Assembly (NCBI GenBank): GCA_965116905.1
Contig: OZ220732.1
Span: 2,368,001 to 2,432,000 of the forward strand
Reading direction: 5' to 3'
Source of the DNA: Longimicrobiales bacterium
GTDB lineage: Bacteria; Gemmatimonadota; Gemmatimonadetes; Longimicrobiales; Gaopeijiaceae
Length of the DNA: 64,000 bases
Shown piece by piece: positions 24,037 through 26,677 of this stretch. The notes beneath the pieces are model-generated. The model did not search any database. It was not told where the DNA came from and saw only the letters and a program-made list of their open reading frames with translations. Every line of letters begins with the position of its first letter. Positions within the stretch are counted from its first letter, which is position 1. Position numbers and translations under genes: made by a program.

Positions 24037-24849
24037 GTGAGACTCAAGGGCATCGACGCCCTCGTCACGGGAGCCGGGCGCGGGCTGGGCAGCGGCATCG
24101 CTGCCGCGCTTGCGGCGGCGGGTGCGCGAGTTTGGCTGGCGGCGGAGGTGCCGGAAGAACTCGATTGGACCGCGACGCGGATTCGCGATGCCGGCGGGCG
24201 GGCGGAGGTCTGCGTGGCCGACCTGGCACGCGAAACCGAACGCGACCGCCTGGCGCGACGGGTCACCCGCGAAGCCGACAACCTGCGCGTGATCGTCAAC
24301 AACGCCGCGATACTGGAGCGGCAGCCGCTGGAAGCGGTGGACCAAGAGCACTGGGACCGAACCATGCGCGTGAACCTCGAAGCGCCGGTCTTCCTGACGC
24401 GCGACCTGCTGCCCGTGCTGCAGCGCCGCGGTGGGTCGGTGATCAATGTGTCGTCGCGTGCGGGCGTCGAGGGCTTCCCCGCACAGATCGCGTACTGCGC
24501 GTCCAAGTTCGGGATCGAGGCGTTCACCCGCTGCCTGGCCCTGGAGCTGGCCGGGTCGAGCGTCAGCGTGAACGCGGTCACTCCCGGCATCCATCTCAAG
24601 CCGACCTCGCTTTTGCGGCGCGATGCGGAGGCAGCCGACGCCGCCACCCGGGCGCGCTGGGAAGACCCCGCGATCCTCGGTCCCGCGTTTGTCTTCCTGG
24701 CGGGACTGCGCGGCGAGGTCAGCGGGTGCCGCTTCGACGCGCATGTGCTCACGCAGGCGTTGCAGGAGTCGGGCCCGGACGGAGTCGTCGACCGCGCGAA
24801 CGAGGTGGCGCACGAGGTGGCCGAGCACGTGCAGGAGAGCGTGCCTTGA
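24037..24849 (+). CDS. Short-chain dehydrogenase/reductase
   Basis: TGAGRGLG, VNNAA, NVSS, YCASK. Confidence 0.9.
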   Translation: MRLKGIDALVTGAGRGLGSGIAAALAAAGARVWLAAEVPEELDWTATRIRDAGGRAEVCVADLARETERDRLARRVTREADNLRVIVNNAAILERQPLEAVDQEHWDRTMRVNLEAPVFLTRDLLPVLQRRGGSVINVSSRAGVEGFPAQIAYCASKFGIEAFTRCLALELAGSSVSVNAVTPGIHLKPTSLLRRDAEAADAATRARWEDPAILGPAFVFLAGLRGEVSGCRFDAHVLTQALQESGPDGVVDRANEVAHEVAEHVQESVP

Positions 24850-25496
24850 AGATCGAGGCCGCGCTGTCCTCTCGGGCACGTGCCGCGCTGGAGGAAGGGC
24901 GCCCGAGCGTCGACGGCGTCCCGGCCATCGCGGTGGCTCCGCCGGCCGCGCCGGCACCCGGGCTGCTGGACAGCTTGCGCCACCACCTGCTTGAGGGCGA
25001 AACCCATTATCCGGATCGCCCGGGTATGGCCGAACTGCGCCGTCTCGTCGGCAACGCCCTCCCGAATGTCGGCTATGCGGCACGGGGCCCGGACGGCGTC
25101 CTGATTACTGCCGGCGAAGGCGAGTCGCTGTTCGTGACGCTGCTCGCCGTGGGACCGGACGCCGAGGTCCACCTTCTCGGAGGCGCGAATGACCACGGTC
25201 CCCTGCGGCGGTGGATGAACGCTCGCGACAAGGGAGGAGCCACCGTTCACGCCCTCGGCGACCGGCTGTTCGCGGCCGGCGCGGCACCGGGCGACCGTCT
25301 GGACAACCCCGGCGACCACGCCATCGTGATCGGGTCCCTGGACGGCCTGGTCGCCATGCGCCCCTTCCGTCTCGGCTTCGTGGCGGCGCCGCCGGACACC
25401 CTGCAAGGAATCACGAAGTGGAAGCAGGCGTCGTCGATCTGCTCGCCCGCGCCCTCGCAACGGGCGGCGCTGTGGGCGCTGGGGGTGCGACCGTGA
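24846..25496 (+). CDS. Degenerate, truncated class I/II aminotransferase-like protein (216 aa) lacking the catalytic Lys
   Basis: TTG start overlaps the SDR stop; its stop overlaps the next GTG. Retains ETHYPDRPGMAELR, LITAGEGE, FRLGF, SSICSPAPSQRAAL; SFSK region reads GSLDG; no NPxNPTG, no DEIY, no C-terminal small domain. Confidence 0.75.
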   Translation: MKIEAALSSRARAALEEGRPSVDGVPAIAVAPPAAPAPGLLDSLRHHLLEGETHYPDRPGMAELRRLVGNALPNVGYAARGPDGVLITAGEGESLFVTLLAVGPDAEVHLLGGANDHGPLRRWMNARDKGGATVHALGDRLFAAGAAPGDRLDNPGDHAIVIGSLDGLVAMRPFRLGFVAAPPDTLQGITKWKQASSICSPAPSQRAALWALGVRP

Positions 25497-26677
25497 CGGC
25501 GGCACAGAAGGGCTCGGCGGCGTTGCGCAAGGGCGAGCGCGGGACCTCGCTCCGCTACCGCATGATGGCGCTGGCCCGAACGCGTGAAGACGTGATCTCA
25601 CTCGGTCGCGGCGATCCCGACATCGACACGTCCGCGGCCATCGTGGAAGGAGGACTCGCTCGGTTCGCGGAGACTGCGGACATTGGCGCCGGCCCCGTCC
25701 GCGGACTCGCCGCGCTGAGACATGGCATCGCCCGCCGCTACGCAAATGAACGGGGCATCGCAATCGACCCGGACCGCGAGATCGCCATCACCAACGGCGC
25801 GCAGGAGGGACTTTTCCTTGCCATGCTGGCGATGGTCGATCCGGGCGACAGGGTCGCGTGTCAGGATCCTCGCTACAGCTCCTACGACCAGGCGATCGGT
25901 GTCGCGGGGGGAGAGATCGTCCCGGTTCCGACCGGGGGCGATCGACCGTTCCTGCTGGGAGCCGATGAGCTGCGCGAACATGCCCGAAGCGCGAAGATGC
26001 TGGTCTTCGTCAACCCCTCCAATCCCACCGGCGCCTGCGTGGACGGAGAAGGAGTCGAGGCCCTCGCCCGTGCCGCCGCCGACCTGGACCTGCTCGTCCT
26101 TTCCGACGAGATCTACGAGGACGTGGTGTTCAACGAAACGCCCTTCCGCTCGTTTCTCGCGCCCGATGGCGCGCGCGACCGATCCGTCGTGCTTTCCGGC
26201 TTCTCCAAGGCCTATGCGATGACCGGCTTCCGTGTAGGCTATCTGGTCGGACCACCGGCGTTCATCGACGCGGTGGAGGCGCTCAAGAGCACGACTTCCG
26301 GGGCCTGTCCGGTGTTTTCCCAGTGTGCCGCACTCGCCGCGCTCGAGGCGGATCCGGATCCGCGGCCTGCGTACCTGGCACGCTATCGGGCGAGACGCCA
26401 GGCGCTTCTCGACGGTTTCGCGAGGATCGCAGTCCCGCACGGTCCGCACGGTGGCGGCCTGTTCATGTGGGCGGACATATCGCGCTTCCGCATGGATGCG
26501 GAGACCTTCTGCTATCGCCTGCTGGACGAAGCGGGCGTGCTCATGTTCCCCGGCAACGCCTTCGGCCGGCGCTGGCGCGGGTGGGTGCGCGTGTCCCTGT
26601 TGGCTCCGGAGGCGCACATTCGCGAGGCGATGGACCGGATCGAAGAATTCACGGGCGGCCTGGTGGCGGGAGACTGA
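25493..26677 (+). CDS. PLP-dependent aminotransferase class I/II (lacks the N-terminal THY motif)
   Basis: [47 protein letters not shown]. Confidence 0.9.
   Translation: MTAAQKGSAALRKGERGTSLRYRMMALARTREDVISLGRGDPDIDTSAAIVEGGLARFAETADIGAGPVRGLAALRHGIARRYANERGIAIDPDREIAITNGAQEGLFLAMLAMVDPGDRVACQDPRYSSYDQAIGVAGGEIVPVPTGGDRPFLLGADELREHARSAKMLVFVNPSNPTGACVDGEGVEALARAAADLDLLVLSDEIYEDVVFNETPFRSFLAPDGARDRSVVLSGFSKAYAMTGFRVGYLVGPPAFIDAVEALKSTTSGACPVFSQCAALAALEADPDPRPAYLARYRARRQALLDGFARIAVPHGPHGGGLFMWADISRFRMDAETFCYRLLDEAGVLMFPGNAFGRRWRGWVRVSLLAPEAHIREAMDRIEEFTGGLVAGD

Follow-up and report, generated by a model that had tools for sequence, protein, structure and literature searches.

The window analysed here, a 64,000-nucleotide stretch (positions 2,368,001 to 2,432,000 of contig OZ220732.1, assembly GCA_965116905.1) from a Longimicrobiales bacterium of the phylum Gemmatimonadota, carries a short and a long gene that overlap each other and are both related to class I aminotransferases; we interpret them as encoding the two subunits of a putative heterodimer with a single active site. 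Residues are numbered below by the usual convention for aspartate aminotransferase (AspAT), transferred through alignments, possibly with a shift of one in the 291-298 segment. The two genes, the features within them and an intact paralogue are as follows (positions are those of the window; PLP, pyridoxal 5'-phosphate).

24846-25496, forward strand: putative short non-catalytic subunit, 216 amino acids (AF2 model with pLDDT 85.5, Foldseek, homologue alignment)
25002-25010, forward strand: THY (T53-H54-Y55), present in 86/86 aligned sequences; Y55 is the equivalent of Tyr70
25344-25346, forward strand: Gly167, in place of the catalytic Lys258 (profile alignment of both families)
25419-25460, forward strand: WKQASSICSPAPSQ, the 291-298 trans segment and the start of the last helix (alignment of 86 sequences)
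25493-26677, forward strand: putative long catalytic subunit, 394 amino acids, PF00155 fold, complete in its cis residues for PLP and substrate
25676-25705, forward strand: ADIGAGPVRG, the Tyr70 loop without its Tyr (family alignment)
26207-26209, forward strand: Lys239, equivalent of the catalytic Lys258 (120/120 homologues)
26297-26311, forward strand: SGACP, the long subunit's own 295-299 segment, with SIC changed to SGP/SGA (alignment, complex model)
10297-11508, forward strand: intact stand-alone paralogue with Tyr70, SIC and Lys258 (motifs, trees)

The short open reading frame (ORF) had been described in the initial annotation as open and translationally coupled on both sides, and so it is: its TTG start overlaps the TGA of the upstream gene, which encodes a short-chain dehydrogenase/reductase (SDR), by 4 nucleotides (TTGA), and its end overlaps the start of the long gene by another 4 (GTGA). 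An assembly error is ruled out by three sequencing runs, one with a contig spanning 23979-27648 with 1 difference and two others that cover the short gene free of frameshifts. The encoded protein comprises the N-terminal arm, the Tyr70 loop, what is left of the sheet of the large domain, and the 291-298 segment; it has neither Lys258 nor the small domain. The reported losses are borne out by the profile alignment of the two families, in which Gly167 lies opposite Lys239 of the long protein, and NPxNPTG and all sequence past the SQR helix, including the C-terminal domain, are absent. As to DEIY, which had been listed among the lost motifs, only its Tyr225 is gone; the motif itself was not deleted, since SDEIY of the long protein aligns with GDRLF of the short one, a degraded form that keeps Asp222 (D139; an Asp stands here in 91/121 close homologues). 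Arg266 is often retained as well (R175; 66/86). Both ETHY..PG..ELR and SSICSPAPSQ are retained, in agreement with the initial annotation; Y55 aligns with the Tyr of class I enzymes in PDB and is predicted to act in trans, and K193, S197, I198, C199, P203, S204 and Q205 are invariant (n=86). The conserved lysine was considered as an equivalent of Arg292, but the alignment with Thermus thermophilus AspAT places it one residue earlier, and no claim about specificity is drawn from it. Position 91, at the start of the phosphate-binding helix, where active enzymes have Gly or Ala, is occupied by Glu or Asp in 76/86 sequences, and this acidic residue may be a plug that blocks the phosphate pocket of the dead site.

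Taken singly, the short sequence has no match in Pfam, and it matches class I aminotransferases in two pieces, one near THY and the other near the region from Lys258 to position 298. Its AF2 model (pTM 0.79) retrieves class I aminotransferases with Foldseek (E 2e-9), the profile of its family matches PDB with E 2.6e-17, every matched chain being 370-475 residues long, and hhalign relates the short family to the long one with a probability of 99.0. By homology and fold the protein belongs with the class I aminotransferases (PF00155), from which it departs in having neither the catalytic lysine nor the C-terminal small domain. Weak MocR matches occur in 11-13/86 members of the short family; no helix-turn-helix family is matched by the 216-residue protein, so it does not qualify as a MocR/GabR regulator.

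The long protein, on the other hand, mirrors these losses. It is a member of PF00155 (198 bits at a cut-off of 19.7), its best PDB matches are class I aminotransferases (E 1e-58), and its AF2 model has a pLDDT of 91.6, with a mild dip to 82 at the Tyr-less loop against 96-98 in the flanks, which we regard as uninformative for a chain modelled alone. No NCBIfam family is reached above its cut-off, the best being GntC (259.5 against 415), a non-transaminating member. Membership of the serine palmitoyltransferase (SPT; alpha-oxoamine synthase, AOS, family) or GcvP families is not indicated, since the top Pfam, NCBIfam and PDB matches are all class I aminotransferases. In the best 120 homologues, Lys258, Asp222 and Arg266 are present in 120/120, Asn194 and Tyr225 in 119/120 and Arg386 in 118/120 (2 gaps), and Gly38 is found in 83/83 sequences of the long family. 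The cis motifs are thus kept, with ADIGAGPVRG in place of THY, exactly as had been claimed. Tyr70 is found in 0/119 of the homologues that cover the loop, and no other Tyr takes over the trans position; a Tyr elsewhere in the loop segment occurs in 8 of them, and the length of this segment ranges from 23 to 51 residues, compared with 26 in the paralogue at 10297-11508. Within the pair THY is confined to the short partner, where it is present in 185/187 homologues, the other 2 being cut at the N-terminus. Of the trans set the long protein has lost THY but not the 291-298 segment, which is retained, with Lys265 invariant and Ser269 in 79/83 sequences; what changed there is the Ile-Cys pair, now Gly-Pro/Ala (G270 in 82/83, P271 in 73/83). 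As a background, 40 other class I enzymes from the carrier genomes and their relatives were compared (the locus L197 was excluded as a member of the long family): Tyr70 is present in 35/40, 3 have Gln and 2 have other residues. L204, L221 and L225 form a clade of class I aminotransferases that are ordinary except that Gln replaces Tyr70 (THQ).

Homologues of the short protein, 148-307 amino acids long, occur in Gemmatimonadota and Acidobacteriota. The first protein search gave 212 matches among 7597 candidates, and in the 120 listed (211-307 amino acids) GETHYP..RPG and WKQASSICSP.PSQR are invariant; a further search that started from a distant member added 67 (143-270 amino acids). Both searches were limited by length, and the DNA scans described below were free of that limit. 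At about 150 residues some members are complete, and they are reduced to the arm, the Tyr helix-loop, a single strand-helix and the final strands and helices. SIC is present in 187/187 homologues, NP[TM]G and D[ED]xY in 0/187, and a lysine at the catalytic position also in 0/187 (2 matches to the SK motif lie elsewhere); in all 187 the chain ends 7-20 residues past SQR. The median ratio of non-synonymous to synonymous substitutions (dN/dS; Nei-Gojobori) is 0.29 for the short gene (interquartile range 0.23-0.34, maximum 0.83; 41 genes) and 0.15 for the long one; 358/820 pairs passed the divergence filter, and the pairs are not independent. The short gene is under purifying selection. Since it is conserved in both phyla, with motifs that do not vary and a C-terminus at a shared point, and since its orthologues are short and maintained, not decaying, we reject its reading as a pseudogene, in line with the initial annotation. 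Matches in the ESM Atlas were limited to PF00155 clusters and one unnamed cluster from Gemmatimonadota, and the source databases label the short proteins "hypothetical" or "aminotransferase".

The two genes travel together. The DNA scans relied on one exact pattern around SIC. Among the best 80 of 85 loci found with one genome per species, 71 carry a short gene, 3 a fused one and 6 a full-length one, and in 71/71 of the former (Gemmatimonadota and Acidobacteriota, judged by record title) a Tyr-less long gene comes next, in 67 of them with a 4-nucleotide overlap. Metagenome contigs contributed 58 loci (48 short, 9 full-length, 1 fused); here the long gene adjoins in 46/48 short loci, and the other 2 end within 90 nucleotides. 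A scan of genomes with the single protein confirmed 0/599 pattern matches; the species-genome loci above were obtained with an alignment query. The short gene was found in 23 of 401 genomes of the phylum (4 further weak matches are ordinary enzymes), and 22 of these 23 also have the long gene, the remaining one being cut by a contig end; for 121 genomes of the family, a sample that overlaps the former, the counts are 12 and 10, both exceptions again being at contig ends. In these reciprocal searches of 401 and 121 genomes no long gene without a short gene was found. Co-occurrence across genomes, one of the checks called for at the outset, is therefore reciprocal, with strict adjacency in the species genomes, though the counts come from kin and are not independent. 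One Acidobacteriota genome of 10 Mb (G403) holds two divergent pairs (L107:5866-7952 and L197:754-2457), and in the assembly the long gene of L197 is frameshifted close to its start.

In four records, L113, L114 and L122 from Acidobacteriota and L170, both proteins are encoded by a single ORF of 633-648 codons with a linker of about 20 residues between the halves; L122 (5899-7824) is on a record titled chromosome. In a quick tree without L114 the halves nest within the clades of the short and the long family (98 and 99, respectively, in the SH-aLRT branch test), and the four records form one clade, which shows that the pair was re-fused in one Acidobacteriota clade. A further candidate fusion, P0229 (624 amino acids), was rejected: its halves are near-identical to the separate P0244 and P0240 and are joined by about 60 residues of low complexity, so that it is probably a read-through of a split pair.

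Modelling of the short-long complex with PLP, another of the proposed checks, gave a pass, with a score of 0.93 over three runs, whereas the best of the controls scored 0.00; the corresponding mark is reached by 116/157 solved complexes and 2/215 mismatched pairs, counts that are only a rough guide here. The runs share at least 87% of their contacts, with a partner pLDDT of at least 83. On the side of the live site, short residues 53-58 and 194-204 are placed against long residues 41-46, 101-105 and 242-247, and on the side of the dead site long residues 263-276 against short residues 88-96 and 117-123, so that the modelled interface follows the canonical dimer pattern. Short-protein residues conserved at 90% or more are 19/58 at this interface and 11/158 elsewhere (p=6e-6, n=86); in the long subunit 32/66 modelled interface residues are at least 90% conserved.

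We consider it likely that the pair forms an obligate heterodimer with one active site. Fold type I enzymes must oligomerise, their active sites lying at the interface, and in class I an interface Tyr contacts the PLP phosphate of the other subunit (PMC9309667, PMC6715241); a 1:1 heterodimer is for this reason the most economical arrangement. The short protein would bind the adjacent long enzyme 1:1 in place of the missing twin. The long subunit, whose sequence contains them all, would contribute the PLP-binding lysine and the remaining cis residues; from the short one, Tyr70 is predicted to reach the PLP phosphate and the 291-298 segment to form a wall of the substrate pocket. The second site would be dead, as the short chain has no Lys258, Asn194 loop, Tyr225 or small domain. 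The one-site heterodimer proposed in the initial annotation is thus supported by adjacency, reciprocal co-occurrence, fusions and the complex model, and we infer that it is obligate.

Several observations weigh against this interpretation. Tyr70 is missing from 5/40 background enzymes, so that its loss occurs without a known partner. The Y70F variant of Escherichia coli AspAT retains partial activity. The long subunit keeps much of a conserved dimer surface, including Lys265 and Ser269, which a homodimer would explain as well. The co-occurrence is seen among kin and inside a larger conserved operon, and the enrichment of conserved residues at the interface was computed from the same alignment that had been fed to the complex model. 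The latter may owe its pass to memory of solved homodimers and so show likeness, not binding; what it shows is that the geometry is available, neither that the pair binds nor that a homodimer of the long protein is disfavoured.

Some of these points would suit an alternative in which two long chains without Tyr70 make up a working homodimer, and the short protein swaps in facultatively as an activator, inhibitor or ligand sensor that alters activity or substrate range. The background enzymes without Tyr70 and the conserved dimer surface of the long family are in its favour, and a regulatory role was an early hypothesis for SPT1, too (PMC6148460). We nevertheless find it unlikely: the 4-nucleotide coupling in 67/71 loci suggests fixed 1:1 synthesis, the fusions fix the ratio at 1:1, and the long gene was never found alone in the two genome samples; moreover, its loop is both Tyr-less and free in length, and the versions of 148-150 amino acids have too little fold for a ligand site of their own. 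Less probable still is a heterodimer in which the short protein is only a cap for folding or stability, its Tyr and Ser-Ile-Cys taking no part in catalysis or specificity. Instability of SPT2 without SPT1 (PMC6148460) is a precedent, Tyr70 also packs across the dimer interface (PMC6715241), and the complex model lists contacts and gives no score for PLP; however, the invariant residues of the short protein are the known trans active-site ones, unchanged at about 30-40% identity even though the fold has otherwise been mostly deleted. That the short protein is a decaying duplicate, as its truncation, missing lysine, escape from Pfam and higher dN/dS might suggest, or that the long one borrows its trans half from the paralogue 14 kb away in the same genome, seems to us very improbable, because the frames are open in two phyla with invariant motifs and a common end past SQR, and because the paralogue was found in only 6/12 genomes of the family with the short gene, which means that it is not a required partner (its query did not find it in G061, a short-gene genome in one contig and 100% complete).

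For the one-site heterodimer the question arises how it came about. The paralogue has both the cis and the trans motif sets, as claimed, and in full-length trees it is sister to the Tyr-less long family, i.e., it lies on the long subunit's side of the duplication; it would serve as a natural homodimeric control for biochemistry. Tandem pairs of full-length copies, A (GETHY..RPG, LSICSAAPSQ) followed by B (DPRYSSYD), occur in Chloroflexota/Thermomicrobia genomes and in metagenome contigs related to them. A careful tree of 40 rows, in which the short rows fill 32% of the columns, groups the short family with the upstream copy A (99/93) and the long family with the stand-alone paralogue and the downstream copy B (100/95), all within one clade (100/99); for the full-length rows, a second tree built without the trait columns gives the same picture. 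Copy B was rejected as a strict orthologue of the long gene, as the full-length trees place the stand-alone paralogue as the sister of the latter, and appears from these trees to be a relative on the long side of the duplication. Among 15 A loci, Lys258 has become Arg in copy A of L183 and L184 while B keeps its Tyr, and Tyr70 has become Ala in copy B of the closely related L185-L187 while A keeps its Lys; these one-sided losses all go the way that was predicted, and the reverse changes, loss of Tyr in A or of Lys in B, were not found in any of the 15. Because of the trees and of these full-length pairs with one-sided losses, we suppose that a tandem duplication, followed by reciprocal loss, gave rise to the pair. 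The full-length Chloroflexota relatives of the short protein read as the ancestral state; the Chloroflexota pairs are sister lineages, not direct ancestors, and show that the route was open and possibly taken in parallel.

As to the possible function, the pair is surrounded by the following genes.

21808-24849, forward strand: D-2-hydroxyacid dehydrogenase, DUF819 membrane protein and SDR oxidoreductase, a conserved upstream operon
26768-28183, forward strand: dihydropyrimidinase/hydantoinase-family amidohydrolase (TIGR02033 above cut-off), a frequent, not fixed neighbour
28161-30271, reverse strand: AstE/AspA (DoeB-like) deacylase and Ldh_2 dehydrogenase (28161-29168 and 29165-30271), convergent with the pair

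The SDR gene precedes the short gene in 61/69 loci with room for it, a hydantoinase-like gene directly follows the long gene in 20/67, and in several Acidobacteriota the DoeB-like deacylase is co-directional and upstream of the pair. These neighbours would fit a pathway in which an N-acylated or cyclic-amide compound is taken up, opened at its ring or deacylated, and transaminated, with redox steps on the keto acid, and the reaction of the pair is, as a tentative guess from gene context, probably a transamination in the breakdown of such a nitrogen compound. A non-transaminating PLP chemistry is possible, because no NCBIfam cut-off was reached. Related sequences carry the labels Gemmatimonadetes or Longimicrobiales, and the named sequencing runs that contain DNA of the locus are sponge metagenomes; the host is likely to be a Longimicrobiales bacterium associated with sponges. 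In one metatranscriptome run the locus appears as contigs of flat depth up to 21 kb long, which may be DNA, and a promoter scan at the locus gave nothing above chance.

Other parts of the window deserve a brief mention. The paralogue sits in a cluster of peptide-ABC, amidohydrolase and Gfo/Idh/MocA genes, which also includes an ORF of 468 codons (7634-9040, forward strand) without Pfam or NCBIfam matches. At 14310-18485 (forward strand) a protein of 1391 amino acids is encoded, which on a reading of its sequence has apparent Ig-like repeats, leucine-rich repeats and a HELGH zinc-peptidase motif. An ORF of 112 codons (20086-20424, reverse strand), without a Pfam match, lies directly upstream of an amidase gene, is conserved beside it in many relatives and is possibly a small partner of the amidase. 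Between the amidase unit and the operon lies a phenylacetate-CoA-ligase-like gene (19816-21786, forward strand), found in few relatives and as a fragment in one.

According to PMC9309667, solved class I aminotransferases are built of full-length chains, as homodimers or homotetramers. The long protein shares its fold and cis residues with the nearest solved ones (subgroup I-beta/gamma-like: 1j32, 1gd9, 1o4s, 2z61 and T. thermophilus AspAT), and the short protein shares the fold and the retained segments; unlike in these homodimers, the cis and trans residues are here split over two genes. The effector domains of MocR/GabR regulators are aminotransferase-like and have no transaminase activity. 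Yeast Alt2 is likewise presented as an aminotransferase-like protein without transaminase activity in a title cited in PMC9309667. These proteins differ from the short one in being full-length or fused to a DNA-binding domain, of which it is neither. To our knowledge, neither Alt2 nor MocR/GabR completes the active site of a partner.

Heteromultimers built of monomers of different aminotransferases are characterised in a 2022 review as little known (PMC9309667), and no published account of a pair with such a heterodimeric or inactive aminotransferase subunit was found among abstracts of the open-access literature. We are inclined to think, with less assurance than for the one-site heterodimer as such, that this is the first natural obligate heterodimer of class I aminotransferases, in which a pseudo-enzyme reduced to an interface of as few as about 150 residues would set the cofactor grip and specificity of its partner in trans, the intact pair, one-sided loss, truncation and re-fusion all being extant. 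The pair would provide a soluble bacterial test case for heteromultimers, consisting of a two-gene unit and a natural single-chain fusion, and would define a minimal trans half of the fold type I active site of about 150 amino acids. It might be used in engineering one-site transaminases whose specificity is changed via a small exchangeable subunit. The annotation of the short proteins could be corrected, and the long ones, if assayed alone, would probably be weak or inactive.

A close parallel is the eukaryotic SPT1/SPT2 (LCB1/LCB2), where, too, two paralogous fold type I chains are found, only one of them with the PLP lysine; both are needed for activity and presumably form a single site at their interface (PMC6148460). 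These membrane-bound eukaryotic enzymes belong to the AOS family, unlike the class I aminotransferases considered here, and we infer an independent origin. SPT1 is of full length, unlike the short partner, which at 148-307 amino acids is without the small domain and lacks as much as about 60% of the chain. The P-protein of glycine decarboxylase, also of fold type I, exists as an alpha-beta heterodimer (GcvPA/GcvPB) or as GcvP, in which two related halves are fused, the N-terminal half of which has no lysine (PMC7259800). As in our pair, the dead copy is first in the gene order and both split and fused forms occur; in contrast to it, GcvP is a decarboxylase of another family, and both of its halves keep the whole fold type I domain. 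The loci described here would form a natural series for studying how reciprocal loss turns homomers into obligate heteromers, a passage that in the case of SPT and glycine decarboxylase has to be deduced.

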